Positions 3,986 to 63,442 of a stretch of 64,000 nucleotides of DNA are shown in pieces (position 1 is the first letter of the stretch; each line of letters begins with the position of its first letter). The DNA comes from Escherichia virus ESCO5. Lineage: Duplodnaviria > Heunggongvirae > Uroviricota > Caudoviricetes. The translations under genes were made by a program, and so were the position numbers. The stretch lies in the IMG/VR virus record IMGVR_UViG_2974610597_000001; one strand, given 5' to 3'. The notes beneath the pieces were generated by a model. It was given only the letters and a program-made list of their open reading frames with translations. It made no database searches and had not been told where the DNA came from.

Positions 3986-4534
3986 ATGCTGAATGCGGTA
4001 GAGTTGGCACCACTGATCCGAATTCTTGTTTATAACCCTTCTCAAGAAGTATTGCCAGATGCAATGCTGATTCAGATCATCCAGACTTGGATTGATATTA
4101 TAGGGAATGAAGATAAGGATAAGTGTGCAGTATTGTGGAACAGCTTGATTTCTGTTTTAGAGTATTTATGGAACAACGATGTTCTTAATAACAATACTCA
4201 AACAGGAGGGGCTATGTCTCGCAGAGAAAAGATGGGTGAAGTCGAAGTTGAAGTTAAATTTAACAACGGTCAAGTAACTTATAAGTCTCCGTGGGAAGAT
4301 ATTTATCATAACTATTTAAATGGTCTTATGGTTATTCCTGGGTGCACGGCAGGACGAGGAGCAACCAGTAAAGTTCTTATTGGTGGTGTTGATGCTCGTG
4401 AGATTGATCGAGTAAACAGCGATCCTAACTCTGTAAATGGTCTTGGTAATGTTGCAAGTGTTGATCGTAATACACGCAACGTTAATTATTTGCGAAATTA
4501 TGGACCTGTTTCTTTTTATCGTAGGGACAAATAA
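3986..4534 (+). CDS. putative head-tail connector protein
   Basis: 182-aa ORF in the neck region between capsid and sheath genes; by position only. Confidence 0.4.
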   Translation: MLNAVELAPLIRILVYNPSQEVLPDAMLIQIIQTWIDIIGNEDKDKCAVLWNSLISVLEYLWNNDVLNNNTQTGGAMSRREKMGEVEVEVKFNNGQVTYKSPWEDIYHNYLNGLMVIPGCTAGRGATSKVLIGGVDAREIDRVNSDPNSVNGLGNVASVDRNTRNVNYLRNYGPVSFYRRDK

Positions 4535-5022
4535 TGGAAAGTGAGATCTTACCAGGTGATGATACGGATTGGGAAACCATTATCAAAAAGATGATGGACC
4601 TTGAACAAGTTCAAATCGAAGCTGGTTTTTTAACAAACAAAAGGCATCCTGAATCAGATCTCACTATTCCTGCAATAGCAGCTATTCAACAATATGGTAA
4701 TGAAACAAATAACATACCTGCTCGCCCTTTTATAACAGATGGCGCTGTTATCTCACAGAACAATATCGCTAAAAAGATGAAGCAGGTGTTTGCAAATTAC
4801 TTAATGAATAATGTCGGGTTAGCTGTTTTTGAGCCTATAGCGAGAGCCTCTAGAGAAGGAATAGCTCAAGCGATTGCAATGCAACGTTATCGTCCTTTAT
4901 CTCCTGTGACAATTAAGATACGACAAGATAAAGGCAACTATTCTAATCATATCTTAATAGATACGGCACACATGATAAATGCAATCGAAACAAAAATCAC
5001 AAAAAGCAAGTCTAAAAAATAA
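4534..5022 (+). CDS. putative neck or tail-completion protein
   Basis: 162 aa; start overlaps the upstream stop (ATGA); position between head and tail genes. Confidence 0.4.
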   Translation: MESEILPGDDTDWETIIKKMMDLEQVQIEAGFLTNKRHPESDLTIPAIAAIQQYGNETNNIPARPFITDGAVISQNNIAKKMKQVFANYLMNNVGLAVFEPIARASREGIAQAIAMQRYRPLSPVTIKIRQDKGNYSNHILIDTAHMINAIETKITKSKSKK

Positions 5023-5067
5023 CTTGCATAAACTTTGTTTTTGATGTATACTAAAAAGGAGATACAA

Positions 5068-5484
5068 GTGTTACTAGATCAATTTACTCTCCTTGATCTA
5101 ACTGAATACCAAGGTCGTAGACGAGTCTACAAAGAGGCGGTTGGTTCAGTTATTGCTAACTTAGAAAGTAGTGTAGAATATGAACCATTTACTATTGAAG
5201 CGGCAAGCTTACAACCGATATCTGGTAAAACACTGAATGCACTACCTGAAGGTTACAGATCTAAGGCTCAATATAGTTTCTGGACTAAAACAGAAATGAA
5301 GGGGTTACAACAAGGAACAGAACAGTTATCAGATCAGATATTGATAGATGGTAAATGGTATTCTGTTTATTCCCTTAAAAATTGGACCAGAACATCTTTC
5401 TTAGTCCATCATCACTGTGTTGCAATATTAGACGATCAAAACAACTCCTGGTCTTATGGAACAGAAGGAGGAAACTTTGGCTAA
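5068..5484 (+). CDS. hypothetical neck or tail protein
   Basis: Probable GTG start at 5068 preceded by AAGGAG; the listed ORF begins at 5035. Confidence 0.4.
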   Translation: MLLDQFTLLDLTEYQGRRRVYKEAVGSVIANLESSVEYEPFTIEAASLQPISGKTLNALPEGYRSKAQYSFWTKTEMKGLQQGTEQLSDQILIDGKWYSVYSLKNWTRTSFLVHHHCVAILDDQNNSWSYGTEGGNFG

Positions 5485-6115
5485 TATTTACCAACAAATA
5501 GAAGCATACGAAAATGCCATCTACTTAAATATAGGTGGCTTCCTTCAAGAATTAGTGGGGTTGCCAGTCTATGTTATGGATAAGCCATTCATTAAACCGG
5601 ATACTCCTTACCTAGCACTACGTATTATCACTTCCAGCGATTCTGGAGGTTGGTCTTACCGAAGCTCTATTCAAAATGATATGTATTCCTACGAGATGGA
5701 TAATACCTACGAGATTGAACTTGTAGCCTATCGTGGAAGACCTACCACTTTGATGAGCTATGTTCTGGCTGCTCTCCGTGGTGCAGAGGAATTAAAATAC
5801 AAACATCTCTATTCTAAAGGTCTTGGTTTTTTAGGAGCCTCTAATATAGCTCAAGCCAATACGATTGTAGACGGAGATAAGACTGAATTAAGAGCGCGTA
5901 TGGTTATGACGTTCAACACTCGTATGAGTATTGAAGATATTGCTACTACACCAATAGAAGCAATCAACATGCACATCCGTTCATTCAGAGATAGTTACAA
6001 TGATCCTATCCCTTTAGATTTAATTCTAAACAGGGTTTATGCAATTACTTTGGTTCCAGGCGAATACTCGTCAGTTAATCAAAATGGATCATTATTTAAC
6101 AACCCTACCGAATAA
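5456..6115 (+). CDS. hypothetical tail protein (possible tail terminator or sheath-associated)
   Basis: 219-aa ORF directly upstream of the sheath gene; an alternative TTG start at 5477 follows AAGGAGG. Confidence 0.35.
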   Translation: MEQKEETLANIYQQIEAYENAIYLNIGGFLQELVGLPVYVMDKPFIKPDTPYLALRIITSSDSGGWSYRSSIQNDMYSYEMDNTYEIELVAYRGRPTTLMSYVLAALRGAEELKYKHLYSKGLGFLGASNIAQANTIVDGDKTELRARMVMTFNTRMSIEDIATTPIEAINMHIRSFRDSYNDPIPLDLILNRVYAITLVPGEYSSVNQNGSLFNNPTE

Positions 6116-6149
6116 ACTCATTGGAATTAAGTTTCTAACAGGAGCATAA

Positions 6150-7523
6150 ATGGCAACTTTTCGTGAAAAGGTAGCAACCGTAACTTTACTGTATGGTGCT
6201 ACATCAATTCGTGAAACCCAGTTCGATATTCCTCTGATCCTTACAGGTCAGAACGTAACTGGCGAAGCGATTCAATATTACTCTTCTTCCGATGCACTTT
6301 TGGAAGCAGGTTATGGATTAAATGATCCAGCGTATATTATGGCAGTCAAACTGTTTAACGGTTTGTTCCCACCAGATCAAGTCATGGTTGGTAAGCGTGA
6401 AGTTACAAACTTTACTCTAACTCCAATCGTAGAAGATAGTGCAACTTACACAATTACCATCAAAAATGGTACCAAGAAAAAAGAATTTAAATTCATTGCT
6501 GATGACACTGCAACTGCACAAGAGATTGTAGTTGGTCTGACTGAAATGATCAATGCAGATCTTGTTTATGGCCCACTGTTTACAGTAGCTAACAACGGCG
6601 CTGCAATGACTTTCACTCCAGTAGAAGGTAAGTTTGGTTCTATTGACAGCACAGGTTTCACTCAAGAAACTGTCTATGCTAATGCTATTACGGAAGATAT
6701 TGCTGCTCTGCATGATATTGATAGTAGCTGGTTCTGGACCCTTTCAGATTCCCATGAAACAGAAGATATTCTAGCTTTGGCTGCATGGGTAGAAGAGAAT
6801 GATAAAGTTTACTTCTTCTCTAGTTCTGAACCTGGAATTAAAACGAAAGCAGAAGATAACGTTCTGGAACGACTGAATGACCTCGGTTATAATAACACTT
6901 GCTTTGCATTGTGGATGACCGATGCAGATTCTGTATTCCCAGAAGCAGCAGTTGTTGGTGCTATCTGTTCTCGTCAACCTGGTTTAACTACCCTTCACGG
7001 TAAAACACTGGTAGGCGTAGAGATCGAGAAACTGGATCAGACTTCGGAAAACAATATTGTTCAACAGAACGGTAACATCTATCGTAAAGAGCATGGAACT
7101 CTGTTCTATCGTGATGGATTGATGGTTAGCGGTTTCTTTGTTGACTATGTTGTTCATGCTTTGTGGTTTAAAGCTCGCACAGAAGAATCACTGTTTACAC
7201 TGTTTAAACAACAGTCTATGCTGGGTGGTGGTGTTCGTGCTACTTCAAACGGTCTGGCTTTGATTCGACAAGCTGTTCTGGCTAACCCGATCCAAGTAGG
7301 TATCCTCAACGGTTCCATCGCTAATGAAGTTGTTACTTCTGAAGAGACTGGTTTGCGTGTCGATCTGAAACCTATTGTTTATATTCCTTCTCGTGCCGAT
7401 ATGACCGATGCGCAAATCAATGCTCGTCTGGTTGATGGGATGAAGATTGAATATGTTTACGCTGGCTTCTTCCATTACGTTAAAGTTCAGGTCAACGTCC
7501 TGACTAACCGTACTGCAAACTAA
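6150..7523 (+). CDS. tail sheath protein
   Basis: 457 aa, followed in order by tube, frameshifted chaperone pair and tape measure, the canonical contractile-tail arrangement. Confidence 0.7.
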   Translation: MATFREKVATVTLLYGATSIRETQFDIPLILTGQNVTGEAIQYYSSSDALLEAGYGLNDPAYIMAVKLFNGLFPPDQVMVGKREVTNFTLTPIVEDSATYTITIKNGTKKKEFKFIADDTATAQEIVVGLTEMINADLVYGPLFTVANNGAAMTFTPVEGKFGSIDSTGFTQETVYANAITEDIAALHDIDSSWFWTLSDSHETEDILALAAWVEENDKVYFFSSSEPGIKTKAEDNVLERLNDLGYNNTCFALWMTDADSVFPEAAVVGAICSRQPGLTTLHGKTLVGVEIEKLDQTSENNIVQQNGNIYRKEHGTLFYRDGLMVSGFFVDYVVHALWFKARTEESLFTLFKQQSMLGGGVRATSNGLALIRQAVLANPIQVGILNGSIANEVVTSEETGLRVDLKPIVYIPSRADMTDAQINARLVDGMKIEYVYAGFFHYVKVQVNVLTNRTAN

Positions 7524-17835: not shown

Positions 17836-19989
17836 ATGAAACAAGCTATATTTACTGTCACGCGAGACAAGAGAGTAAATGCGAGTTCATTTAACTACAC
17901 GACTGTTGATGGAACAGCAGTCGCTGGTAGAGATTATATTGCAAAATCGGGAACACTTGTGTTCCCTGATGATGCTGATTCTGCTACCATTGTGGTTGAA
18001 GTATTTGAACGACCAAAGAACTCAATAGATCTTAACTTCTCCCTCCAAGTTTCAGGGATTAGTCAAAATAACATGATGGTTGAAACGACCATCAACTGTA
18101 TTATAACTACGATTCAAGAAAATACTACTCCAATAACTTGGACTACAAAAGACGTTAAAATGTTCTCTCCTATGTATTGGACAATAGATTCTCAAGCAAC
18201 GGAAAGTTGTTCTATTGTATCTCATGGAGACTCTTTTACTGCAAGATTTGTAAACAGAACAACAGCAGGTTTGGCAGGGGTTATCTGGAGCACAGTTGAC
18301 AAATATGACCATAAAGGTGTTGGGTATTTACCCCACACAGATTTAAGTTCAGAGAAACTTTGGTTTAAAATGGAAGTTAGTCAAAACATGCCAGGTTTTA
18401 AAGAAGAACCTTTGGTGCCAACTTTGACTGTAACTCTCTTGGATAAAAGTGTCCACTATGTTAGTTTAGGATTTTATGCTTCAGATATTTCAGAAGATGG
18501 TAAAACAGCTACAATCAAACTAGATTTTGGTAATATCTTCTCTGGTCCTAATAATGATATTCCTTTGGACATGAGTGCTGTAGATAATATTTTCTTCTCT
18601 TTGATTACAGCAAGGTATGAAGAAATAGAAGAGATTGTACCTATTGATAGTCAAGAGGCTTGGTTTACTTTCACTCTTCTTGAACCTACTTCTGGTTATA
18701 GTATGATGAAAGTCAGTAACCTTGTCCAGCCTGAACATGATATTCGCATGTGCACATCTTATGACGATATGTATAACCTGACTCCAGAGAGAGTTATTTA
18801 TAATACATATGCGCTAGGTTATCGTGGAATGATTAACCATTACAACGGAATGTCTCACTATTATGAGTTCTCATGGAACGGAACATCTTGGGCTTTAAAT
18901 AGATCTGTCTTCCTGAATCCAGCTACAGAAGCTTGGCTAAATAGTTTCCATTCTATAGCGAACGAGAAGGGTTACACAATAATGAACTCTTTAAGTTTTG
19001 AGTTGATGAGCACAGTTTGTCCTGTAGAATGGGTCCAGCATGATTGGAACGATGCTCTTGCAGCAACAGGGTATGAGCCTCCTAGTTACGTGTTGTCTCC
19101 AACTATTGACGAAGGTATGAAATATTTGCAAAATGTTATTAATAAAATAGCATCTATTTCGCAAGCTAATAATATTCCAGTTGTCATTCAAATTGGTGAG
19201 CCTTGGTGGTGGTATAATACAGCGAGTAAAATGCCTTGTATATACGATTACACTACTAAACTAGCATTCAACACAGAAACAGGTTTATTTGCACAAGATG
19301 TAGGAACAATAGATAATTATAAAACAGGAACACCGTTTGACGAATACTATGCATTTTTGTCTCGTAAACTAGGATTAAGAGTTGCAAAGTTTGCAACAGA
19401 TACTAGATTAGCCTATCCTGGAGCTAAAGTTACATTATTACCATTTGTGCCATCCATTTTAGGTAACGGTATGATGGAGTTTGTTAACTTCCCTAAAGAT
19501 TATTATATCCCAGAAAACTTCGACTTTTATTGTTCAGAGTGTTATGACTGGTTGTTGGAAGGTAAGATGGAAAAATCTTTTGACGCTATCACAATACCTA
19601 ATGAACAATTAGGTTTTAGTTATGATAAGATACATTATCTTGCAGGTTTTGTTCCAGATGCTACTCTTGCACCTTTGTATAGCTTTGATCCTGAATCAAA
19701 CTACCGCACGTATCTTTGGAAAATGATTATAGGTAACATAGTGTTGAACGCCAATAAGTTCAATGGACTTACACAATATATATGGGCCTATCCTCAAATA
19801 ATGCACGATTCTATCACGGTAGTTAATTCTCAATCCCAAGTTTTCTATATGGGTAACGTGCCTTTGAACGTTTATTTACAGGATATCACTCTTAAACAGG
19901 TAAATGTTGAGATTGCCACCATAAGTGGAATTACATTAGCCACTAAATCTGGAGAAGATTTAGTAACAACACAAAAATTTTATATATAG
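17836..19989 (+). CDS. tail fibre or tailspike protein 2 with N-terminal Calx-beta-like domain
   Basis: 717 aa; N-terminus (NYTTVDGTAVAGRDYIAKSGTLVFPDDADSATIVVEVFE) matches the Calx-beta pattern. Confidence 0.5.
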   Translation: MKQAIFTVTRDKRVNASSFNYTTVDGTAVAGRDYIAKSGTLVFPDDADSATIVVEVFERPKNSIDLNFSLQVSGISQNNMMVETTINCIITTIQENTTPITWTTKDVKMFSPMYWTIDSQATESCSIVSHGDSFTARFVNRTTAGLAGVIWSTVDKYDHKGVGYLPHTDLSSEKLWFKMEVSQNMPGFKEEPLVPTLTVTLLDKSVHYVSLGFYASDISEDGKTATIKLDFGNIFSGPNNDIPLDMSAVDNIFFSLITARYEEIEEIVPIDSQEAWFTFTLLEPTSGYSMMKVSNLVQPEHDIRMCTSYDDMYNLTPERVIYNTYALGYRGMINHYNGMSHYYEFSWNGTSWALNRSVFLNPATEAWLNSFHSIANEKGYTIMNSLSFELMSTVCPVEWVQHDWNDALAATGYEPPSYVLSPTIDEGMKYLQNVINKIASISQANNIPVVIQIGEPWWWYNTASKMPCIYDYTTKLAFNTETGLFAQDVGTIDNYKTGTPFDEYYAFLSRKLGLRVAKFATDTRLAYPGAKVTLLPFVPSILGNGMMEFVNFPKDYYIPENFDFYCSECYDWLLEGKMEKSFDAITIPNEQLGFSYDKIHYLAGFVPDATLAPLYSFDPESNYRTYLWKMIIGNIVLNANKFNGLTQYIWAYPQIMHDSITVVNSQSQVFYMGNVPLNVYLQDITLKQVNVEIATISGITLATKSGEDLVTTQKFYI

Positions 19990-19997
19990 GAGTAAAA

Positions 19998-22763
19998 ATG
20001 TCAACTACAATTACTAATTTACCCGAAACATCAAAAGTTAATGGTTCTGATTACCTGGTTTTAGACCAACCTGATAAGACTGTTAAAAGCACAGTTTCCA
20101 ACTTTCTTACTGACACTGGGGTGGTTTTAGCCACCCAGTTAAAAGATATTTCTGGAGCTACCAAGTACCCAGAACTTCAAATGTCACGCTGGAGAGATGA
20201 AGGTGATCCTAGAGGATGGGGAGCAGTAGGTGACGGAGCAACAGACGATACCAATGCCATAACACAGCTTCTTGCTGCTATGCCTGATGGATGGATTATT
20301 GATGGGCGTAATCTCACTTTCAAGGTTACAACACTACCAGATATAAGCAAGTTTAAAAACGCTGCTTTTGTTTACGAGCGTATTGTTGGACAACCCCTTA
20401 CTTATGTATCTGAAGGTTTCTTCGATGGAAATCTGACAAAGATTACGGATACACCATTTTACAATGCTTGGACGCAAGATAAGACGTTTGTTTATGACAA
20501 TGTTATATATGCACCATTTATGGCTGGCGAACGTCATGGTGTACAAAACCTCCATGTAGCGTGGGTTAAATCAGGAGATGATGGACAAACTTGGTCTATG
20601 CCAGAATGGTTAACTCCAATTCATCCTGATTATAATGCCTCTTCAGCAAACAAAGTTAACTATCATTGTATGAGTATGGGCGTATGTGGTAATCGCCTAT
20701 ATGCAGTCATCGAAACCCGTTATTTATCTAACATGCGATTGAAGAAAGCAGAACTTTGGTCACGTCCAATGCCTTATTATAGAAGGCCAACTGGAGGTAT
20801 AACAATTAGTTCTGGGTCTACTACGGCGACGATTGTTTTAGAAAAGCATGGTCTTAAAGTTGGAGATGCTGTTAACTTTTCCAATTCAGGTGCAACTGGT
20901 GTATCTGGAAATATGACTGTTGCATCTGTAATTAACAAGGATACATTTACTGTTACATTAGCGAGTGCTGCCACATCTAATATAGATAATACAGGAACTA
21001 CTTGGCATTTTGGAACACGTTTCTGGGATAGCCCTTGGGAAATTACAGAATTACCAGATGTTGCCTATTCTACTAATGCAGACTTATGTGTTACAGAAAC
21101 CCATAGTTTTACAGTTATAGATGATGATAATTACACTTTTGCTGTGGGTTATCACAATGGTGATGTTTCCCCAAGAAGATTAGGTATTTTGTATTTCAAT
21201 AATGCTTACTCTGACCCAAGTTCTTTTACTCGTAGAACAATTAGTCAAGAATATGCTGACAATGCAGCAGAACCCTGCATTAAATATTATGATGGAATTT
21301 TATATTTAACTACTAGGGGTACTTCAACTTCTGCTGCTGGTTCTACATTAGCAATGAGTGCTGACCTTGGAGAAAACTGGAATTACTTAAGATTTCCTAA
21401 CAACGTTCATCATACAAACCTACCATTTGCAAAAGTTGGTAACTACCTTTATATCTTTGGTACAGAACGTTCATTTGGAGAATGGGAAGGAGAAGAACTA
21501 GATAATAGATATAAAGGTACGTATCCTCGAACGTTTATGTGCAAGATTAATGTATCTGCATGGCCTGCATCTTTATCCGATGTTCAATGGTTTAATATCA
21601 CCGATCAGATGTATCAAGGGCATATTGTTAATTCTGCATGTGGTGTTGGTTCGGTATGTGTTAAAGATGGTTGGTTATATTATATCTTTGGAGGCGAAGA
21701 TTTCTTATCTCCTTGGTCTATTGGGGATAATAGTAAAAAATTATGGTACAAGCACGATGGTCATCCAGCCGATTTATATAGCTATAGACTAAAGATTACC
21801 GAACATGATTTTGTATCACGTGATTTCAAATATGGAGCTACGCCAAACCGTACATTGCCTGTATCTATGGGTACAGATGGGGTAAGGCATGTCTCAGCCC
21901 CTGTAACTTTTGATAATGATGTGCAAGTACACTCTTTAACAGTTACTGGTCTTGAGCATGATGGGACACAACAATCTGCCGTTAGAATAAAATTAGATGG
22001 TGATTATGGGGTTGTTGCAAAAAATGTCCCAATAAAAAATCCTTCTGAACAGCGACTAATCTTATGTGGAGGAGAAACTCCTTACGTTACTGATGGATCG
22101 CTATTACAACTATATGGTTCAAACCATACGTATCCAAACAGAGCAGTTTTATATGCCCCAGGAGGAGCATATACCCAAAATAATTTCATGCCATATTTAG
22201 ATGGACAAGTTGCATTAGGTGGTGCATCTAACAGATGGTCAGAAGTGTACGCATCTACAGGAACCATTAATACTTCAGATGGAACATTAAAAACTAAACC
22301 TACAGAGATTGAAGATATTTTACTGAAAGCGTGGGAAGATATTCATGTAATCTCTTATCAATGGCTGAGTGCTATCGCGGAGAAAGGAGATTCTGCGCGT
22401 ATTCATTTTGGTGTTATAGCTCAAGATGTAAGAGATATTCTGATTAATTATGGTTTAATGGATGAAAATAGCACTGATTGTAAGTATGCTTTTCTGTGTT
22501 ATGATGAATACCCTGCTATGTACGATAGTGTTGTTACGGGACAAAAAGAAATCCCTTTATTTGATGATGAAGGGAATGTTGTAATTGATGAAGAAGGTAA
22601 TCCAGTAACAATCGTAGAAGATGTTGTAGAAACTATCGAAATAATTCCAGCAGGATCGCGATGGGGTATCCGCGCTGACCAAATGTTTTTTATTGAGATG
22701 GCTTATCAACGTAAAAAGTTAAAAGCTCTTGAAGAAAGACTTGCAACCCTGGAAAGTAAATAA
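19998..22763 (+). CDS. tailspike with Asp-box motifs and C-terminal S74-type intramolecular chaperone domain (sialidase-like)
   Basis: 921 aa; GDGATDDT motif near the N-terminus, Asp-boxes SGDDGQTW and SADLGENW, and a C-terminal TSDGTLKTKPTEIEDI...GVIAQDV segment typical of autoproteolytic chaperone domains. Confidence 0.6.
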   Translation: MSTTITNLPETSKVNGSDYLVLDQPDKTVKSTVSNFLTDTGVVLATQLKDISGATKYPELQMSRWRDEGDPRGWGAVGDGATDDTNAITQLLAAMPDGWIIDGRNLTFKVTTLPDISKFKNAAFVYERIVGQPLTYVSEGFFDGNLTKITDTPFYNAWTQDKTFVYDNVIYAPFMAGERHGVQNLHVAWVKSGDDGQTWSMPEWLTPIHPDYNASSANKVNYHCMSMGVCGNRLYAVIETRYLSNMRLKKAELWSRPMPYYRRPTGGITISSGSTTATIVLEKHGLKVGDAVNFSNSGATGVSGNMTVASVINKDTFTVTLASAATSNIDNTGTTWHFGTRFWDSPWEITELPDVAYSTNADLCVTETHSFTVIDDDNYTFAVGYHNGDVSPRRLGILYFNNAYSDPSSFTRRTISQEYADNAAEPCIKYYDGILYLTTRGTSTSAAGSTLAMSADLGENWNYLRFPNNVHHTNLPFAKVGNYLYIFGTERSFGEWEGEELDNRYKGTYPRTFMCKINVSAWPASLSDVQWFNITDQMYQGHIVNSACGVGSVCVKDGWLYYIFGGEDFLSPWSIGDNSKKLWYKHDGHPADLYSYRLKITEHDFVSRDFKYGATPNRTLPVSMGTDGVRHVSAPVTFDNDVQVHSLTVTGLEHDGTQQSAVRIKLDGDYGVVAKNVPIKNPSEQRLILCGGETPYVTDGSLLQLYGSNHTYPNRAVLYAPGGAYTQNNFMPYLDGQVALGGASNRWSEVYASTGTINTSDGTLKTKPTEIEDILLKAWEDIHVISYQWLSAIAEKGDSARIHFGVIAQDVRDILINYGLMDENSTDCKYAFLCYDEYPAMYDSVVTGQKEIPLFDDEGNVVIDEEGNPVTIVEDVVETIEIIPAGSRWGIRADQMFFIEMAYQRKKLKALEERLATLESK

Positions 22764-22783
22764 TACCGCTTAGGCGGTATTTC
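22763..22783 (+). terminator. hairpin terminator
   Basis: ATACCGC, TTAG loop, GCGGTAT, followed by TTCAATCTTT. Confidence 0.45.
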
Positions 22784-27159: not shown

Positions 27160-30100
27160 ATGGCAACATTCCCAACATATCCAGCAACGTCTCTCGAACA
27201 GGGCGTAGACCTGGTTATTTTCTCATCTAACCAACTCCATGATGTTATTAATGGAAGTGCTACAGAGAGTATTGAAACAGAATCAGGGTTGATACCAACC
27301 CTGAGAAAATCCCTTGTTGACAACTTTTTCTTTAAAAGCCCATTGGATTGGGCGCAAGGCACAAACGAAACAGTTTTTAACCAACTACGTTATTTTCAGA
27401 ATGGGGTATTGAGCGGTTATTATTATGCTCCTAATGCTACATTGGTAAACCCAATTCCTATGCAAGGGACTCCAGTAGGAGATAACAACTGGGTATTGTG
27501 GGGACTGAAGACAGAACAACTAGCAACAGAAGTCACCCCTTGGGTATATTCTGGTGCAACTGGTTATGAAACAGTAATCAGTCCTCCCTACATCTTTGAT
27601 AGTGCTATTGTTACAATCAATGGTGTTATTCAGGTTCTGGGAGAAGCTTTCCGCATAGAAGATAGTAAAATCATTTTATCTGAACCTTTGGGACATGATC
27701 CTGCAACAGGACTGCCAAACAAGCTTTTTGCCTATATTGGTAAAATCGTAGCTTCCGCAGATACAGATCCTAACTTAGAAAACCGTCTTGTCAGTTTAGA
27801 AACAAAAACTGAAGAACTGACAGAAAACATGGATAAAGTACCTTTACAAACTATTGCTCGTAAATACGGTTTGTTGGATGACGAAGTAGCTTACGCAACA
27901 GCGGGTCAATCATTAACAGGGATTAAAGCTCTGTATGATCCGGTAGCACAATCTTCCTACACATTGCCTCCTAACATCACAGGGACTTTAACATCTTTGT
28001 CTGTTTCTGGAGTAATGACTTATTCTGGCGGATCTGTAGATCTTTCTGCATTAGCTGTTGAACGTGGACAGTTTGTTCATTTGCCTACAAGCTTTGGTAA
28101 TAATGTAACTCTGACAGCTAAAAATCAGACGATTGGGCGTGGCGCTGGTCGCTATCGTTGGGCGGGAAGTTTACCAAAAAGTATTTTAGCTTCTGATACA
28201 TTGGAAACAAGTGGTGGATTAGGTCCAAATGCATGGGTTCTAACTAATACAGAAGGACTGTTAACCCCTCGTGGTGGAACATACAACGATTTATTCGATG
28301 TTGTCCGCTTATCAGAATTTGCTAACAATACAACTACCTATACCACACCAGAAGCAGCTTTCCAGGCGGCACTGTTAGCAGCAAAAGCTTCGAAAAGTAA
28401 GATTCTCGACGCTTACGGTTGTGATATGACTTTCACGACAAGCTCTTTTGATATTCAAGATATCACTTTGCGTGGGGGTGTGTTCCGTGGTCAACGCGAT
28501 TATCGTGTGCAAAATGCTACAGTAGAAGGCACAACTTTCCGTAACTCTCGTGTTATGTATTGGGGTGGTGCTGTGCGCATGTTCGATTGTTTGTGGGACG
28601 GTGCTCCTCGCGCAGGTCAAGTTGGTAGCTTGGTATTCCAAGGAAACCCAATATCAGGTACTTTTGAAATTGATAATTGTACTTTTAAAAACGGGTTATA
28701 TGGCATCCTTCAACAAGGAACAGGGGAACCAGTAACACGCGGTGTCTTCCGTAACCTTACCTTCATGGACATGCAAGGTGATGCAATAGAACTGAACGTC
28801 ATCAATAAACATTATGATGATGGTTGTGTGATTGAGAATATTTACCTGTCTAATATTGATGGGACTAACGCTCCTATTCCTCTGTCCAACTGGGGTATCG
28901 GTATTGGTGTGGCTGGTAAAGGACCATATGGTTACGGAATTCCTGATGATCAATATTGCAAGAATATTACAATTCGTAACGTTTTTGCAAAACGTTGTCG
29001 TCAGATTGTCCACGTAGAAGTTGGTCGTAATATTTCTATCGAAAACATTCATGGCGATCCAGATCAAACTGTATCTGTTGGGACAGGTTTGGCAACTGGC
29101 GCAGTTGTAATGTATGGAAGTAAAGATTTTACGATTGATGGTGTTTACGGAGAGCCTAAAACAGACGGTAGCACACTTGCAAGTAATATCCGTATGATTT
29201 ATTTGGAGTGGGGAACTAACGCAGTTCTGGATGAAGAGGGCAATCCGGTAGTTCCGGCACAGGGCAGACCTTCAAACCCATGCTTTAACTATTCTGTTCG
29301 TAACATTCACACCAAAACTGGGCGTGTTTTTGCAGGAGTTTCCGCTGGGCCAGGTTATGAAAACAGAGTCAGCTTTGAGAATATCCATTGTGCTGCGTTG
29401 CAGTTGTTCGGTGTAGCTTCTTGGCTTTCAATGTCTAACATCACCTGTAATATCTTTGATTGTGTTGGTCAACCTGAATCTGGTCCAGGGACATTTTATG
29501 ATGGATTCTTCCGTAGAGAAAAATCTGTTCTTGAGATGGTTAACGTAAACTGTTACCCAGATGGCAAGACTATGGTTACTGGTCGCCCACAGTGGAGCCG
29601 TTGCCGTTACTCTGATATTCATCGTGTCAACTGTAATGTTGAAGCTAATATGTATACCAATATCGCAGGTGGTATTGGAGCTATTGTAGGGACAACTGGC
29701 AAAGTTTATTACTTAGAGCCTAACCCTAGCCGAAACATTGATGGGATGCATTTCCCAACAGGGAAGGAGTTTGACAAAGGGGATATGATAGTCAAAGCGG
29801 ATAATACGTTCTTCCTTGTAACAACAAGTGGGGCATACATTCCAGATATCCCAGCTTTCGGTATTCGAGCTACACAAGCAGGAGATACCTTCCTGACACA
29901 GAACTTGACTCCTAATGGGACAGCAACAAACGCTTCTTGGTTGTATCACTATCCTCTGTCAGCAGGAACACGTATCCGTATTCCTGGTGCTGGTGTAGGT
30001 GGAGCAGATTTGGACACAGTTATTACTCGTGCACCTTATCAAGATAATGATACGTGGACTAACCCAGTTAAAATAGACATTGCAGATCCAATTGTAACGC

Positions 30101-30213
30101 CTACGAGTGCTGGAGTTAGAATCAAAACCATACCTAACGATTCTAGTAATGTTTCTGTAGGTAATACTGCGGTTATTCGCCCAACACCAGTGGTAGATGT
30201 GCCAACAACCTAA
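27160..30213 (+). CDS. tailspike with parallel beta-helix depolymerase domain
   Basis: 1017 aa; central region has repetitive beta-helix rungs (NCTFKNG, NITIRNV, NISIENIHGD). Confidence 0.55.
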   Translation: MATFPTYPATSLEQGVDLVIFSSNQLHDVINGSATESIETESGLIPTLRKSLVDNFFFKSPLDWAQGTNETVFNQLRYFQNGVLSGYYYAPNATLVNPIPMQGTPVGDNNWVLWGLKTEQLATEVTPWVYSGATGYETVISPPYIFDSAIVTINGVIQVLGEAFRIEDSKIILSEPLGHDPATGLPNKLFAYIGKIVASADTDPNLENRLVSLETKTEELTENMDKVPLQTIARKYGLLDDEVAYATAGQSLTGIKALYDPVAQSSYTLPPNITGTLTSLSVSGVMTYSGGSVDLSALAVERGQFVHLPTSFGNNVTLTAKNQTIGRGAGRYRWAGSLPKSILASDTLETSGGLGPNAWVLTNTEGLLTPRGGTYNDLFDVVRLSEFANNTTTYTTPEAAFQAALLAAKASKSKILDAYGCDMTFTTSSFDIQDITLRGGVFRGQRDYRVQNATVEGTTFRNSRVMYWGGAVRMFDCLWDGAPRAGQVGSLVFQGNPISGTFEIDNCTFKNGLYGILQQGTGEPVTRGVFRNLTFMDMQGDAIELNVINKHYDDGCVIENIYLSNIDGTNAPIPLSNWGIGIGVAGKGPYGYGIPDDQYCKNITIRNVFAKRCRQIVHVEVGRNISIENIHGDPDQTVSVGTGLATGAVVMYGSKDFTIDGVYGEPKTDGSTLASNIRMIYLEWGTNAVLDEEGNPVVPAQGRPSNPCFNYSVRNIHTKTGRVFAGVSAGPGYENRVSFENIHCAALQLFGVASWLSMSNITCNIFDCVGQPESGPGTFYDGFFRREKSVLEMVNVNCYPDGKTMVTGRPQWSRCRYSDIHRVNCNVEANMYTNIAGGIGAIVGTTGKVYYLEPNPSRNIDGMHFPTGKEFDKGDMIVKADNTFFLVTTSGAYIPDIPAFGIRATQAGDTFLTQNLTPNGTATNASWLYHYPLSAGTRIRIPGAGVGGADLDTVITRAPYQDNDTWTNPVKIDIADPIVTPTSAGVRIKTIPNDSSNVSVGNTAVIRPTPVVDVPTT

Positions 30214-30277: not shown

Positions 30278-32302
30278 ATGAATTTAACAAGACCTAATAG
30301 TGCGATAGCCGATCTAGTAGAAGCTACTTATCGAAAACGTCGCAGTTTTGAGGCAGGTTTTACATTACGTAATTCCCGTGAAGTTTTGCTGTTAGCGGCA
30401 GAAGGGAATTATTACCAATGGAAAGGAACTTTTCCTAAAGTAGTTCCAGCAAACTCTACGCCAGCCACCACAGGTGGTATTTCTTCCCTTGCATGGCAAA
30501 GTGTTGGGACCGCTGATGATATAGCAATTATCAATGCCAAGTTTACGGCAATGCAGCAACAGATTGATGATCTGTCGGAAACAATACCTGAAGCTGGTAA
30601 ATCGGCTTATCAGATCGCACTTGATAATGGTTTTGTTGGAACAGAAGCACAATGGCTTGCTTCTTTGAAAGGGGATACTGGTGCTCAACTTAATATTAAA
30701 GGATCATTAGCAAGCACTAGTGAACTACCATCTACAGGTAACGTAGCAGGTGATGGTTATATTGTAGGAGATGTAATCTACGCTTGGGATGGGGCTGTTT
30801 GGAAACTTATCTCTTCTCTTGGGCCAGAAGGGAAATCAGCTTACGAGGTATGGTTAGCAGATGGTAATACAGGATCTGTTTATGACTTTCTTGCCTCTAT
30901 AAAAGGTGATAAAGGAGACGTTGGTCCTACAGGTCCACAGGGTGCACCTGGTGTCAACGCTAATGGTTTTGATTACCGTGGAGATTTGCCTTCTACAAGT
31001 AACTTACCACAACCTAACTCTGAAAACGTAAGCCAAGCTTATTCTATTAATGGTAATCTTTATGTCTCTAATGGGACAGCTTGGGTCAACATGGGTAATA
31101 TTGTTGGTCCTCAAGGTCCACAAGGTGAGGCAGGTAAAGACGGTCTAGATGGAACAGATGGAGACGAAGGGAAATCTGCATATCAAAGTTGGCTGGATGC
31201 TGGTAATGAAGGGACAGAAGTAGATTTTATTGCCTCACTTAAAGGTCCAAAAGGAGACAAGGGTGATCAAGGAGAGCGAGGTCCACAAGGTGAACTAGGT
31301 CCACAAGGACCAGTGGGTGCAACAGGATCAGGTTTAGAGATTATCGGGGTTCTGAACAGCGAAGCTGAACTTCCTCCTACTGGAGAAGTAGGTGATGCAT
31401 ATAAAATTAATAATGATTTGTATGTTTGGGTTCAAGATGCTACAGAATGGATGAATGTAGGCAGTCTTGGAGGAACATCAATTACAGCTAAAGGTCATGT
31501 TCCGAACAGTGAAGCTCTCCCTGTTTATAATAACTACGGTGATGCCTATTTAACTGAAGACACTAGTAATCTTTACATCTATACCTACGATCAAGACACC
31601 AATTCCGCATCTTTTGTTGACATGGGAAGTATTAAAGGCGACAAAGGTGAAAAAGGGGATAAAGGAGATAAGGGTGATCCTGGAACAAACGGAACCAACG
31701 GTACTGATGGGACCAACGGTAAGGACGGCGCACAGTGGTTTGTAGCAACAACTAATCCAGTCACAGGAGACGGTGTTATCAATGATTACGCCTTCAATAC
31801 TACCACTGGAGCAGTATTTAAGAAAACAGATTCTTCTACGTGGACACTTATAGGAACTCTTCCTAGTATACCAGAAGCCCCTCAAGACGGCTTGACGTAT
31901 GGTCGTTCTGATGGAAACTGGATCGAAATATCAGGATCAGATCCTACGGAAGCTATAACACCAACTAGAGTTACAGCAGGTTTCATGGAACTTGAAACAA
32001 CTACTGCCAACTCTGGAGCATCTTGGACTCCTTCTGGAACTTCCAATATGTATGTTGTTACAGTAACTGACGCTCTGACAGTTGGAGCATGGCCTGGTGT
32101 CACTGGCTCTACAAAACCTAAAGCGTTTTCAGCAATGATTTATTTGATTCAAGATACAACGGGACACACGGTTACACTAGATGCGTCTTATGGAGCACTA
32201 AATGATACAGAAATAGCAACTACTGCTAACGCAGTAACAATTTTGCAATTAACGTATCCTGGTGTGGGTGATATCGTGGACATGGTTGTTGTAACACGAT
32301 AA
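30278..32302 (+). CDS. collagen-like tail fibre protein
   Basis: 674 aa with four Gly-X-Y tracts, three copies of a GKSAY..WL..G..G...DF.ASLKG motif, and four copies of a ~40-aa LP.TG..GDAY...LY.W...W...G motif. Confidence 0.7.
   Translation: MNLTRPNSAIADLVEATYRKRRSFEAGFTLRNSREVLLLAAEGNYYQWKGTFPKVVPANSTPATTGGISSLAWQSVGTADDIAIINAKFTAMQQQIDDLSETIPEAGKSAYQIALDNGFVGTEAQWLASLKGDTGAQLNIKGSLASTSELPSTGNVAGDGYIVGDVIYAWDGAVWKLISSLGPEGKSAYEVWLADGNTGSVYDFLASIKGDKGDVGPTGPQGAPGVNANGFDYRGDLPSTSNLPQPNSENVSQAYSINGNLYVSNGTAWVNMGNIVGPQGPQGEAGKDGLDGTDGDEGKSAYQSWLDAGNEGTEVDFIASLKGPKGDKGDQGERGPQGELGPQGPVGATGSGLEIIGVLNSEAELPPTGEVGDAYKINNDLYVWVQDATEWMNVGSLGGTSITAKGHVPNSEALPVYNNYGDAYLTEDTSNLYIYTYDQDTNSASFVDMGSIKGDKGEKGDKGDKGDPGTNGTNGTDGTNGKDGAQWFVATTNPVTGDGVINDYAFNTTTGAVFKKTDSSTWTLIGTLPSIPEAPQDGLTYGRSDGNWIEISGSDPTEAITPTRVTAGFMELETTTANSGASWTPSGTSNMYVVTVTDALTVGAWPGVTGSTKPKAFSAMIYLIQDTTGHTVTLDASYGALNDTEIATTANAVTILQLTYPGVGDIVDMVVVTR
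30596..31730 (+). repeat. in-frame coding repeats (collagen-like triplets and tail-fibre repeat modules)
   Basis: Seen directly in the translation of 30278..32302. Confidence 0.7.
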
Positions 32303-32343: not shown

Positions 32344-35016
32344 ATGTTTCCAATTCCAATATTTACTATTATGACCAGCACTGGTGTCGTTCCTCTGCCA
32401 GCAGGTATTGTTAAAAAAGTAATCACTCTAGATTACCCAGATAATGCTGGCAATTCTAATAGCAGTTTAGCAATTTTGCTTAATGATGGTAGATTGTTTA
32501 CTCAAGGCGCAAACCTTTTTGGTGAGATTGCAGATGGAACTCGTAGTGCACGATTCAATAATTTCCACTTAGCTTCTACTGTAGTAGCGGATGTGTTTAC
32601 CGCAGATCGTTGTTTTGTTATTAAAACTAACAGTGGGGGATGGCAATATTCAGGATTGACAGCAGGGTTGGTAGGATCTATAGCAGCAGGTGGTACGGAT
32701 GCATGTGTAACTACTTGGACCAGCTTTCCATCTGTAATAACAGGGACTATCTCTTTAGCCAATCTTAAAGAGGTTAAGGGAGGATATAACAACACTCTCT
32801 GGTTGATGAATAGTGGTGTTCTTTATGGATCAGGTCAAAACACAGTAGGCAGTTTAGGTGCAAGTACTACTAACGAAGTTTCTACTCCTCGTCAGATAAC
32901 AAGTGCAGCAGTTGCTTTTGATGCAGGTTACAACCAATGCTCTTATGTCAACAATGTGGGAACCTTGCGTGTTTGTGGGGCTAGTAAAGGTTTAGCAGGT
33001 AATAATAACACAACAACAGCTTTTGTCAATGCCAAGATATCCGCTACTGAAACAGTGTATGTCAAAGATTACATCAATACAGTTTCCCAGACAATAGTTG
33101 TAGGAGATACCTCCGGTGGCACGGGTACAGTAAACTACTTATATGTTAGATCTAATACAGAAACAACCTACACTAAACTGGACACCTTTGCAGCAGGTTT
33201 CTCAACATGGAAATTTCCACCAAGCCGCCACTCTTTTTTCGTTGGGATCAATAATTCCTTGTGGGCTATTGGTAAGAACTACACTGCAAACTTAGGTTTG
33301 GGGTATGATTCTGCGAGCGGAGATCCACTCCAAGTGGGAAAACCAGTTAAACCTGAAGGAGTGGGTTCCTGGGATATAAACAAGCTCACAAGCGTTCATA
33401 CACTGAATATGGATGTTACTAACCAATTAGGTTATCAAGGAACCTTTTTCGTTTATAATGGAGATATGTATTATTCAGGTATTTGGAAAGATGGGAAAGC
33501 CTCGTATCTGTTCAATAGTGGTCTAAACTATAATAAATTCACACCAATAGCAAGCTCCGTGATTACAGGGGATGTTCTGGCAACTGGCTTAACTACAGAT
33601 TCTTTAGGAATTTGTATTGTAGGTGGAACTAAACAGTTGACACATTCTGTTAGCCCAGAAGGAGGTAAACTTTTCAATATTAAATACACTTCTTCTGCCC
33701 CTGCAAACATGACAATATCATCTACTGGTTTAATGACTTTCCATGCAGAAGGTGGTTTTGATGCAGGTATGACAGCCTTAAACGCTGAAGGAACAATTTT
33801 ATCAGATACCTCTGGAGGATATGCTTCAACATTGAGTGTTTACACCCCTAGCTTATCTGCGATGGATGTAGGAACAACACAAACAATGGTAGCAGAAATA
33901 ACACCAACAGGAGCAGCAAGCTTACCTGATATGGTTGTTGAGTATACAACTACAGATCCTAATGTTGCTACAGTAGATCCTACAACTGGTGTAATAACTG
34001 GTGTTGGTGATGGTGGTTGTAGGATTGGTTGCACAGCTACGTATCAAGGTGTTGTTACCGCTTCTGATAGTTCTTATTTAACGGTGAATGCTGTTGCGGG
34101 AAAGGAGTTAGCTCCATCTCCGAGTAGTAGTTTAACGGTTCTAAACGGATATTTCAACCACTCGGCAGATGGGGCAATTACGTTCCCAACTTTATCGGGT
34201 ACTGTTACACCAGCTAACTTTGTAGTTAAGGTGGATGACGTTGTAGTTCCTTCAAGTAAAGTAATATTTAGAAACAAAGCTTTCTCTACAGTGGATAGTT
34301 ATCCAGCAGGAGAATATAGACTGGCTATTGAATTTGCAAGTGCTTCAGTAGTTAATAGTGTGGAAGTGTCTATGGAAGCAAACCCAAGTCTTTTAGAACT
34401 TTGGGGCGGTAATAGAATCAGTTATTCTACAAGCCCAGCCTCACAATTCTTAAAAGGTTGTGCTAACTTAAGACGAATAACTTCTGATTGTTTTAGTAAC
34501 ACATCTTACACCGGAACATCTATAAGCGGTATCTTCTCTGGCTGCACAAGTTTGACAGCTATCCCTGAAGGATTATTCAGTGATGCTTTATTTCCTTCAA
34601 TGACAACAATGTCAAGCACGTTTGAAGGTTGTACATCTTTAACATCTATTCCTTCAGATTTATTTAAGAATCTGTCAAAAGTTACAAGATATTCTTACAC
34701 CTTTAAAGATTGCACCTCTCTTGCAGAAGTTCCAGCAGGAATGTTTGATAATATTCCAACGAAAGTGACCTCTTTAACAGCTACATTCCAAGGTTGTTTA
34801 GGACTTACAGATTTTAATAAGATCTTTAATGACAACCCAGGGTTAACTGTTTGTGGTAAACGTGGAGCATTATCTTCTTTCTTTAGTGGATGCACAAATC
34901 TTACAGGAACAGGAACAACATTAACAAATACATTAGGCGGAGTAGCTAATAGTTACCTATTCAGGTATTGCACAAAACTTTCTGATTATAACAACATTCC
35001 TTCCGGTTATAAATAA
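32344..35016 (+). CDS. tail fibre or receptor-binding protein with Ig-like (Big_2-type) domain and C-terminal BspA-type leucine-rich repeats
   Basis: 890 aa; Big_2-like segment (TTTDPNVATVDPTTGVITGVGDGGCRIGCTATYQGVVTA); five or six C-terminal F.GCTSLT.IP..LF repeats. Confidence 0.55.
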   Translation: MFPIPIFTIMTSTGVVPLPAGIVKKVITLDYPDNAGNSNSSLAILLNDGRLFTQGANLFGEIADGTRSARFNNFHLASTVVADVFTADRCFVIKTNSGGWQYSGLTAGLVGSIAAGGTDACVTTWTSFPSVITGTISLANLKEVKGGYNNTLWLMNSGVLYGSGQNTVGSLGASTTNEVSTPRQITSAAVAFDAGYNQCSYVNNVGTLRVCGASKGLAGNNNTTTAFVNAKISATETVYVKDYINTVSQTIVVGDTSGGTGTVNYLYVRSNTETTYTKLDTFAAGFSTWKFPPSRHSFFVGINNSLWAIGKNYTANLGLGYDSASGDPLQVGKPVKPEGVGSWDINKLTSVHTLNMDVTNQLGYQGTFFVYNGDMYYSGIWKDGKASYLFNSGLNYNKFTPIASSVITGDVLATGLTTDSLGICIVGGTKQLTHSVSPEGGKLFNIKYTSSAPANMTISSTGLMTFHAEGGFDAGMTALNAEGTILSDTSGGYASTLSVYTPSLSAMDVGTTQTMVAEITPTGAASLPDMVVEYTTTDPNVATVDPTTGVITGVGDGGCRIGCTATYQGVVTASDSSYLTVNAVAGKELAPSPSSSLTVLNGYFNHSADGAITFPTLSGTVTPANFVVKVDDVVVPSSKVIFRNKAFSTVDSYPAGEYRLAIEFASASVVNSVEVSMEANPSLLELWGGNRISYSTSPASQFLKGCANLRRITSDCFSNTSYTGTSISGIFSGCTSLTAIPEGLFSDALFPSMTTMSSTFEGCTSLTSIPSDLFKNLSKVTRYSYTFKDCTSLAEVPAGMFDNIPTKVTSLTATFQGCLGLTDFNKIFNDNPGLTVCGKRGALSSFFSGCTNLTGTGTTLTNTLGGVANSYLFRYCTKLSDYNNIPSGYK

Positions 35017-55461: not shown

Positions 55462-56535
55462 TTAAACAGCAGCTTCTTCTTTTTCAGGGAAGATAAAGCT
55501 TGCAATAACACCAAGAGATAATGTGCCTAGAACAATCATCAGACTTACGTTAGGGGAAATATCATGCGGGAGGAATGACCACTTGGCATGAAGTGTTTCA
55601 CCGAACGGGTGATACATAAGTTTAGCACCAACAAACACCAGAACCACAGCAACAGCTTTCTCTAAGTGAACCAGATATTTCACAGCTACACTTAACACAA
55701 AGAAAAGTGCACGTAAACCAAGAACAGCCATCAGCATTGCAGAATAAACTAGCAGAGGTTCTTGTGTCACACCGATTACAGCCGGAACTGAATCAAAAGA
55801 GAAGACAATATCTGTAAGCTCAATAACAAACACACAAAGAAGAGCAGGAGTTGCATATTTAATACCATTCTTAATGGTAATGAACTTTTCACCATCTAGT
55901 GCATTGTGCACAGGCAGAACTTTACCTACTAAACGAACAGCCCAATGCTTAGAGTAATCAATATCCTCTTCTTCGTCACCACCTTTGATGATAGCCACGG
56001 CAGACCAAGCTACAATCAAACCGAACAACACTTGGACCGACCAATGAAGGTTAAACAAAGCGGTCCCTGCTGCAACAAAAATACCTCGGAAGACAATGGC
56101 TCCTGCAATCCCCCAAAGTAAAATCTTATGTTGAAGATGTGTGCTCTTAATTCCAAAGCTTGCAAAAATTGCCATGAATACCATCAGGTTATCTACAGAA
56201 AGACTCTTTTCCAACACATAGCCACTTAGGAAAAGCGCGGCAAACTCTTTACCATGTTCTACCCAAATGAATGCGTAATATCCTAAAGCTAAAGCAATCC
56301 AAAAAACAGACCAAAGCAAAGCAGATTTAATTCCAATTTCTTTATTTTTACCATGTTCTACCCAAATGAATGCGTAATATCCTAAAGCTAAAGCAATCCA
56401 AAAAACAGACCAAAGCAAAGCAGATTTAATTCCAATTTCTTTATTCTCTTTATGACCAAAGAAATCGATACCAATAGACAATGCCAAAATACCAACTAAA
56501 ACAACTACATCAATAATTGGGAAACCGAGTTGCAT
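55462..56535 (-). CDS. terC: TerC-family integral membrane protein
   Basis: Multi-pass membrane protein with LEKSLSVDN and TDIVFSFDSVPAV motifs; contains an internal exact 33-aa duplication. Confidence 0.8.
   Translation of the reverse strand: MQLGFPIIDVVVLVGILALSIGIDFFGHKENKEIGIKSALLWSVFWIALALGYYAFIWVEHGKNKEIGIKSALLWSVFWIALALGYYAFIWVEHGKEFAALFLSGYVLEKSLSVDNLMVFMAIFASFGIKSTHLQHKILLWGIAGAIVFRGIFVAAGTALFNLHWSVQVLFGLIVAWSAVAIIKGGDEEEDIDYSKHWAVRLVGKVLPVHNALDGEKFITIKNGIKYATPALLCVFVIELTDIVFSFDSVPAVIGVTQEPLLVYSAMLMAVLGLRALFFVLSVAVKYLVHLEKAVAVVLVFVGAKLMYHPFGETLHAKWSFLPHDISPNVSLMIVLGTLSLGVIASFIFPEKEEAAV
56248..56445. repeat. perfect 99-bp tandem duplication (2 copies) inside terC
   Basis: 56248-56346 is identical to 56347-56445; in frame; CTCTTTA occurs at both 56245-56251 and 56446-56452. 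Confidence 0.95.
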
Positions 56536-62026: not shown

Positions 62027-63442
62027 TCATTTGGAGAGGAATTGTCTTCCCATGATCTTACCGTTCTTCACAGCGGTCCCATCGTGTCCATTGTAATCCC
62101 AGGTTCCATCGATATTACGCAAGAAGCTATCACGAACAGTATAGGCTTTACCGTTCTCTACTTTACTTTCTTCCACAATGATTGCCATAACAAGCTTATT
62201 TTCAATTTCGGTAGTAACCGATTCTTTGATACCCTCTGTAACTTCACGATCATATTGGATATAAACTCGCTCCTCGGTTACTTGCACGTCTACCACATTT
62301 TTAAATGTGTAGGTCTGTTGCGTAGTGTAGAGGACACGAACGACACTCTTCTTACCTACCGGAGGCTTCTTACGAGGCTTACGGTAACGTGGTTTAGGGT
62401 TGTTAGTTGGAAGCCAACCAACAATATCCCGATCATATCCAACATGACCCCAAGTGAAATGCGTAGCCGATCCACTATCCGTAGTTCCGTCACGAAAGAG
62501 AACTTCTACGTGACCACCACAAGGGCGGTGTCCACCATTATTATAGTTGTATTTTGCCGTGCGCGGGAGAATGAAGTATTCTTTAATCGCCCACTCTTCC
62601 AGATTGTCGATATTCCAAGTGAATACTGTTCCCTTAGCAACATCTGTTTGACCATTGTTGAAGCGAACCTGCACGAAATCTTCCGAAGGCATAACACCTG
62701 TGTTCGGCAGATATTCAAATGCAGTATCTTCCGCTACAAACTGTTCTTCCTCTTGCTCCTCAATACTTGGCACAGGCGCAGCTTCATCGTATTTCGCAGC
62801 AAACATATTTTTAAATTCTTGAGCCGTGACTTCTACAAGGCCGCGATCACCAGTAGCAGCAGAGTGTGGGCGTGGTAAATCCCCAACTTCAATATGCATT
62901 GCATCTAAGCCTGCTTGACGATCAAAGAAGATAACCTTGCGGAATTGTTTATCTTTATATTGTGGCAGTTCATACATACTTGGATCGATTGTCTTCAAAC
63001 GTTCAGCATCTTCTGGCTTCCAGAAGCTTTTACCTGTTGCAAATCTAAAGTCTACCAGTAGTTTAACAACATCTCCTAATGATAAACTATCTGCATCTAC
63101 GAAAACGTCTTCGATTCCCAATAACCCTGATTTCTTAAGAATCAAATCTAACATGTAACCTCCTGTGGTTTGTTCTGCGTCTGGATAACGATCAACACTG
63201 GTGCTGGTTACACCGTTTATTTCACCAGTGGAGGCATTGTAGGAAATATATGGGAAGGTCATATCGTTCATTGCAAAATCACCTGAACAGGTTGGATCAT
63301 CTTCTCCCTCCCAGCCATACACCTTCACAATACCTTCACACAATTTGTCATACACACCAGCGCGACGTGCTGCTTCAGCAACTTCCTGTTTACGGGCAAA
63401 TTTATTAATCATGATTCCTCCTGTTAATTGCCATAGATGCAC
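62027..63442 (-). CDS. hypothetical large protein (possible enzyme of the accessory biosynthetic module)
   Basis: 471-aa ORF; likely true start is the internal Met (MINKFARKQ) after GGAGGA near 63411; no motif identified by eye. Confidence 0.5.
   Translation of the reverse strand: MHLWQLTGGIMINKFARKQEVAEAARRAGVYDKLCEGIVKVYGWEGEDDPTCSGDFAMNDMTFPYISYNASTGEINGVTSTSVDRYPDAEQTTGGYMLDLILKKSGLLGIEDVFVDADSLSLGDVVKLLVDFRFATGKSFWKPEDAERLKTIDPSMYELPQYKDKQFRKVIFFDRQAGLDAMHIEVGDLPRPHSAATGDRGLVEVTAQEFKNMFAAKYDEAAPVPSIEEQEEEQFVAEDTAFEYLPNTGVMPSEDFVQVRFNNGQTDVAKGTVFTWNIDNLEEWAIKEYFILPRTAKYNYNNGGHRPCGGHVEVLFRDGTTDSGSATHFTWGHVGYDRDIVGWLPTNNPKPRYRKPRKKPPVGKKSVVRVLYTTQQTYTFKNVVDVQVTEERVYIQYDREVTEGIKESVTTEIENKLVMAIIVEESKVENGKAYTVRDSFLRNIDGTWDYNGHDGTAVKNGKIMGRQFLSK

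Follow-up and report, generated by a model that had tools for sequence, protein, structure and literature searches.

The ESCO5 tailspike precursor, a probable EndoN92 orthologue with an endosialidase propeller and a predicted self-cleaving chaperone domain

Within the window, by which we mean the whole 64,000-nucleotide stretch of DNA from Escherichia virus ESCO5 analysed here, one gene of the tail region almost certainly encodes, to judge from its sequence, the orthologue of phi92 gp143 (EndoN92), that is, the GH58-type endosialidase tailspike of ESCO5, a phi92-like myophage. The enzyme is already known and carries little weight as a discovery: GenBank annotates it, the ESCO5 genome announcement mentions it by name, and for an orthologue that is nearly identical both a crystal structure and biochemical work have been published. 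The first-pass annotation, reading the letters for motifs, had called the protein a strong candidate for an endosialidase-like capsule depolymerase; its reasoning was sound and the identity is borne out, and "candidate" is too weak a word for a protein that is annotated and published in this very phage. A depolymerase of the K1/K92 E. coli capsule matters for phage therapy directed at avian and neonatal-meningitis strains, and the C-terminus is a classic example of the self-cleaving type of chaperone domain.

The features of the gene and its immediate surroundings are as follows.

19988..19992, plus strand: ribosome-binding site AGGAG; it overlaps the stop codon that ends the gp142 homologue upstream
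19998..22763, plus strand: endosialidase tailspike precursor gene, ATG start, 921 aa and a stop codon
19998..20222, plus strand: aa 1-~75, putative N-terminal virion-anchor module, retained across the phage lineage irrespective of the enzymatic cassette behind it
20223..20423, plus strand: aa 76-142, End_N_terminal (PF12218), the endosialidase N-terminal extension with the GDGATDDT motif, E 1e-33
20424..21797, plus strand: aa 143-600, End_beta_propel (PF12217), catalytic six-bladed beta-propeller, E 1e-212
20571..20594, plus strand: aa 192-199, Asp-box 1, SGDDGQTW
20772..21020, plus strand: aa 259-341, End_beta_barrel (PF12195), polysialic-acid-binding domain inserted in the propeller, E 4.1e-38
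21357..21380, plus strand: aa 454-461, Asp-box 2, SADLGENW
21804..22274, plus strand: aa 603-759, End_tail_spike (PF12219), the stalk, E 1.2e-62
22275..22760, plus strand: aa 760-921, C-terminal intramolecular chaperone domain, Peptidase S74, matching PF13884 and 3GW6
22275..22292, plus strand: predicted self-cleavage site, Ser760 to Lys765 catalytic pair, aligning with endoNF S911/K916
22762..22781, no strand assigned: G+C-containing 8-bp hairpin overlapping the stop codon, predicted on the minus strand only, weakly terminator-like and of uncertain function

Re-reading the sequence confirmed the open reading frame and every motif that had been quoted from it. GDGATDDT occupies aa 78-85, the two Asp-boxes are the only matches to S-x-D-x-G-x-x-[WFY] in the entire protein, and the S74-like segment is represented by TSDGTLKTKPTEIEDI at aa 759-774 and GVIAQDV at aa 805-811. 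As these motifs sit inside matches to curated profiles that score far above threshold, they are not chance occurrences. A pectate-lyase-type domain was considered for GDGATDDT and rejected, as the 13.5 bits of PF12708 fall short of its cut-off of 27 and the match covers aa 74-93 only; the stretch belongs to PF12218. The same AGGAG motif carries a ribosome-binding-site annotation ahead of gene 143 in the phi92 record. A search for terminators and promoters around the gene yielded no defined site, only the weak hairpin at its end, and the five terminator-like sites of the tailspike region are not above the 3.1 +/- 1.8 found in shuffled controls.

The propeller matches PF12217 at 706 bits (cut-off 24) over profile positions 1-366 of 367. 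Nested within it, the barrel spans its full profile (1-83), and the stalk follows, so that the endosialidase comparison made in the first-pass annotation holds for all four Pfam families of the enzyme. The likeness to S74 chaperones that it had also noticed is equally real, since PF13884 matches at the extreme C-terminus directly after the stalk (aa 760-819, E 1.7e-12, 47.8 bits against a cut-off of 22), and the L-shaped tail fibre of T5 (pb1, 4UW8) is among the more distant structures matched by the chaperone domain, together with 3GUD (GA-1 appendage), 7Y5S, 9VVR and 6EU4. The crystal structure of EndoN92 itself, 4HIZ, matches aa 75-759 with E = 0, its chain beginning at aa 75 and its last residue being precisely the one that aligns with T759. 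Structures of endoNF (1V0E, 3GVJ-L) match at about 1e-237, and the matches to 4HIZ, 3GVL and 1V0E are collinear. 3GW6, comprising the endoNF stalk and chaperone domain, matches aa 663-921 (E 2e-70), and a second 3GW6 match, obtained for the chaperone domain, has an E value of 1.2e-58; both run to the last residue. In PHROGs the protein falls into the tail-spike family phrog_1171 (E 2e-300). The stalk of endoNF is described in the literature as a triple beta-helix.

At the level of DNA the gene is 100% identical over its 2766 nt to ESCO5_00098 (AOT23219.1; KX664695.3 83032-85797), annotated as an endo-N-acetylneuraminidase, from which it differs in nothing, and likewise 100% identical to the gene with the same annotation in vB_EcoM_REC. 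Identity is 98-99.5% to the tailspike genes of nepoznato, phAPEC8 and other phages, and 96.8% to phi92 gene 143. The two phages with the orthologous pair belong to different genera, ESCO5 to Phapecoctavirus (Stephanstirmvirinae) and phi92 to Justusliebigvirus. Global alignment with EndoN92 (CBY99572.1; PDB 4HIZ) gives 96.74% protein identity, the difference consisting of 27 substitutions and a three-residue insertion, N213-A214-S215, in a propeller loop (921 aa here, 918 aa in EndoN92), and none of these 30 positions coincides with a mapped catalytic or cleavage residue. EndoN92 has the same domain order, cleavage boundary and N-terminal anchor, and lies in the same position after the homologues of gp141 and gp142. 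According to the ESCO5 genome announcement, this phage and phAPEC8 have in common an endo-N-acetylneuraminidase with 96.7% identity to EndoN92.

Residues of the active site were mapped by alignment to full-length K1F gp17 (endoNF), which is 54.5% identical over aa 44-921, using the catalytic and substrate residues listed in the deep-mutational scan of K1F (PMC12632334). Each of the five is identical and lies in conserved local sequence: endoNF H350 corresponds to H180, R549 to R393, E581 to E425, R596 to R440 and R647 to R491. The second-shell residues Q330, D331, H527, S528, K585 and N699 correspond to Q160, D161, H369, S370, K429 and N545, all again identical. None of the residue numbers searched for as named polysialic-acid-binding residues of the stalk was found in PMC12632334. 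Beyond these residues, endoNF (K1F gp17; PDB 1V0E, 3GVJ-L; 3GW6) shares the whole layout of propeller, barrel, stalk and chaperone domain as well as the S911/K916 pair, and the chaperone domains differ by 8 residues in length in the tentacle region. The main difference is at the N-terminus, where endoNF carries a T7-gp17-like adaptor of ~245 residues that fits a podovirus tail, whereas the protein described here has an anchor of ~75 residues that fits a myovirus baseplate.

The 27 substitutions and the insertion might conceivably shift specificity, for instance if alpha2,9 cleavage were lost or gained, tolerance of O-acetylated K1 capsule changed or processivity altered, a prospect we regard as improbable; were it true, the protein would be a functionally distinct natural variant, of use for mapping specificity determinants. 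EndoN92 acts on both alpha2,8- and alpha2,9-linked polysialic acid, as cited in the phi92 cryo-EM paper. Several of the differences from EndoN92 lie in the stalk, at aa 644-739, and in the K1F deep-mutational scan the stalk region tunes processivity and host discrimination (PMC12632334).

Cleavage is predicted between Thr759 and Ser760, so that the mature protein would end at Thr759. Ser760 and Lys765 are five residues apart with the bond on the N-terminal side of the serine, and a threonine precedes that serine here as it does in K1F (T910). In the 3GW6 chain the position aligned to S760 holds an alanine and the lysine is kept. In the annotation of the phi92 record, the mature endoN92* peptide gives way to the chaperone C-terminal domain at the corresponding residue. 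Serine and lysine form the catalytic dyad of endosialidase auto-cleavage and the domain acts as a folding sensor (PMC3742443), and T5 pb1 is likewise cut at a Thr-Ser bond (Thr1263-Ser1264). The S74 chaperone domains of T5 pb1, of the GA-1 neck appendage and of MYRF (ICA domain) share the Ser/Lys pair and the Thr-Ser cleavage as well as profile matches, but their upstream receptor-binding or DNA-binding modules are unrelated and the similarity is limited to aa ~727-921.

The modularity of tailspikes is well known. Here, most of the gene is present in 14 of the 81 phage records that match by megablast and 67 are without it; among the listed matches of the latter kind (H15-H25) the match consists of the first ~150-250 nt only, with a second short piece in one case. 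At the same position in phage VEcB, the 749-aa protein vecB_140 is near-identical over aa 1-74, then diverges and ends in an S74 domain of its own. In the siphovirus fTaEco03 the endosialidase cassette recurs with 74% identity, joined to another N-terminus (Tail_spike_N), and podoviruses of the K1F-like and K1E-like groups carry it at 45-55% identity. Based on the partial matches and the divergence of VEcB after aa 74, we propose that aa 1-~75 form a lineage-specific baseplate anchor and that the remainder is an exchangeable receptor-destroying cassette. No Pfam family covers aa 1-~75.

In the window the gene belongs to a block of tail-fibre and baseplate genes in keeping with what has been called the "multivalent adsorption apparatus" of phi92. 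Upstream lie a baseplate hub, a central spike and the homologues of gp141 (958 aa) and gp142 (717 aa; Calx-beta, NCTSP_N and TIM-barrel_NCTSP). The downstream genes encode a membrane protein of 87 aa, a Baseplate_J-like wedge protein, a protein for tail-fibre assembly and two spikes, one colanidase-like and the other with collagen repeats. The 2026 cryo-EM study of phi92 placed gp143, from low-resolution density, in the distal portion of fiber I, around the periphery of the baseplate, and proposed that it degrades the capsule reversibly, ahead of irreversible binding by fiber III.

By analogy with the work on EndoN92 and endoNF, from which the catalytic activity, autoproteolysis, trimer folding and virion position of the ESCO5 protein are extrapolated, the most likely course of events is as follows. 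The precursor would trimerise, with the S74 chaperone domain (aa 760-921) nucleating the folding of the stalk, and once the trimer has folded Ser760 and Lys765 would cut the Thr759-Ser760 bond, thereby freeing the chaperone domain. The mature spike of ~759 aa would attach to the baseplate periphery via its lineage-specific N-terminal ~75 residues, and the active site of the propeller, assisted by binding sites in the barrel and stalk, would depolymerise the polysialic-acid capsule of K1/K92 E. coli. With the capsule gone, the phage could reach its outer-membrane receptor. According to the genome announcement ESCO5 is not K1-dependent and grows on K1-negative hosts, and thus the endosialidase would aid infection of encapsulated strains and yet not be essential in general.

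Nothing in the sequence argues against the endosialidase reading, and each of the alternatives that we weighed meets evidence already given. That the spike is catalytically dead and serves as an adhesin binding polysialic acid on the capsule is extremely unlikely, as the five catalytic and six second-shell residues are all identical to those of endoNF and no difference from EndoN92 falls on any of them; the idea arises only from those 30 differing positions and from the K1-independence of ESCO5, none of which is specific to it. The two Asp-boxes and a weak match to BNR_2 (E 0.016) could be taken to indicate an exosialidase of the canonical BNR/GH33 type, or some other propeller enzyme with Asp-boxes whose substrate is not polysialic acid, and the first-pass annotation had read the boxes as typical of sialidase beta-propellers. 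The boxes are real; they do not make the protein a canonical BNR exosialidase, an assignment that was tried and rejected, because there are two of them only and the BNR_2 match stays at 15 bits, below the gathering score of 31.4. Set against the full-length propeller match and an identity of about 97% to the crystallised EndoN92, that assignment has next to no probability.

As for the C-terminus, the domain might be kept in the mature spike and act solely as a structural trimerisation module, self-cleavage being a prediction for this protein. We give this a negligible chance, in view of the conserved Thr-Ser site and Ser760/Lys765 pair with its correct spacing, the processed mature peptide annotated in the phi92 record, and the EndoN92 crystal chain that stops at the equivalent of T759.

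Compared with the ESCO5 record (KX664695.3 / NC_047776.2), from base 63035 of which it starts, the window is 100% identical over positions 1-25000 and 39001-64000, bar a 99-bp duplication. The duplication is a perfect tandem one (56248-56346 / 56347-56445) that direct comparison shows to be absent from the ESCO5 record, and it lies in frame in a gene for a TerC-like membrane protein (55462..56535, minus strand), in which it repeats 33 residues, NKEIGIKSALLWSVFWIALALGYYAFIWVEHGK. The listed matches from related phage records come in two pieces whose span falls short of the query by about 93-99 bases, an indication that those phages lack the duplication as well.

Related phages share the first ~75 amino acids of the endosialidase tailspike in nearly identical form but carry a completely different middle cassette, as exemplified by vecB_140 of phage VEcB, the C-terminal end of which is also a Peptidase_S74 domain. 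The near-identity of the N-terminus next to a different middle cassette marks a sharp recombination boundary near residue 75 of the tailspike. The features of this region, of the remaining tail module and of one distal gene are as follows.

17836-19989, + strand, 717-aa homologue of phi92 gp142, directly upstream of the endosialidase gene
19998-20222, first ~75 aa of the tailspike, near-identical across related phages; with it, 4001-6247 of locus L005, cited for the vecB_140 comparison
22762-22781, hairpin with an 8-bp stem, AATACCGC-TTAG-GCGGTATT, overlapping the endosialidase stop codon
22812-23075, + strand, predicted 87-aa membrane protein, homologue of phi92 gp144 (phrog_1322)
27160-30213 and 30278-32302, + strand, two additional tailspikes with Tail_spike_N domains (CBA120 TSP1/gp66-type)
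32344-35016, + strand, 890-aa ORF closing the tail module, with RCC1-like propeller repeats and a Big_2 Ig-like domain
56248-56445, within the - strand gene 55462..56535, tandem duplication of 99 bp, perfect over its 2.0 copies (100% match)

The two additional tailspikes, one annotated as colanic-acid-degrading and the other carrying collagen triple-helix repeats, confirm a multi-spike adsorption apparatus resembling that of phi92. The gp142 homologue, which carries Calx-beta at its N-terminus together with NCTSP_N and TIM-barrel_NCTSP (E 1.3e-79 for the last), is possibly the scaffold arm that bears the endosialidase. Its ESCO5 label, 'non-contractile tail sheath', is odd for a fibre-module protein of a myovirus. 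The 890-aa ORF, in which the propeller repeats match RCC1 at 24 bits and WD40_RLD below the cut-off, could be an additional adhesin. Among the ORFs listed for the surveyed region (9-36 kb) it is the final one on the + strand; after it, at ~35 kb, the genes listed change strand, as does the GC skew.

The hairpin at the endosialidase stop codon scores as terminator-like on the - strand only and is statistically not notable. Between the endosialidase gene and a Baseplate_J-like gene lies the gene of the 87-aa membrane protein, annotated in ESCO5 as 'structural protein'; the category of its family is 'moron / auxiliary / host takeover'.

The 99-bp duplication, the sole difference from the ESCO5 record KX664695.3 in the parts compared (1-25000 and 39001-64000), resides in a gene for a TerC-like integral membrane protein and keeps the reading frame. 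The 33 amino acids repeated, NKEIGIKSALLWSVFWIALALGYYAFIWVEHGK, correspond to about one hydrophobic stretch, which is possibly membrane-spanning. Among the related phage records listed, matches fall into two pieces and span ~93-99 bases fewer than the query, and therefore these records probably do not carry the duplication.
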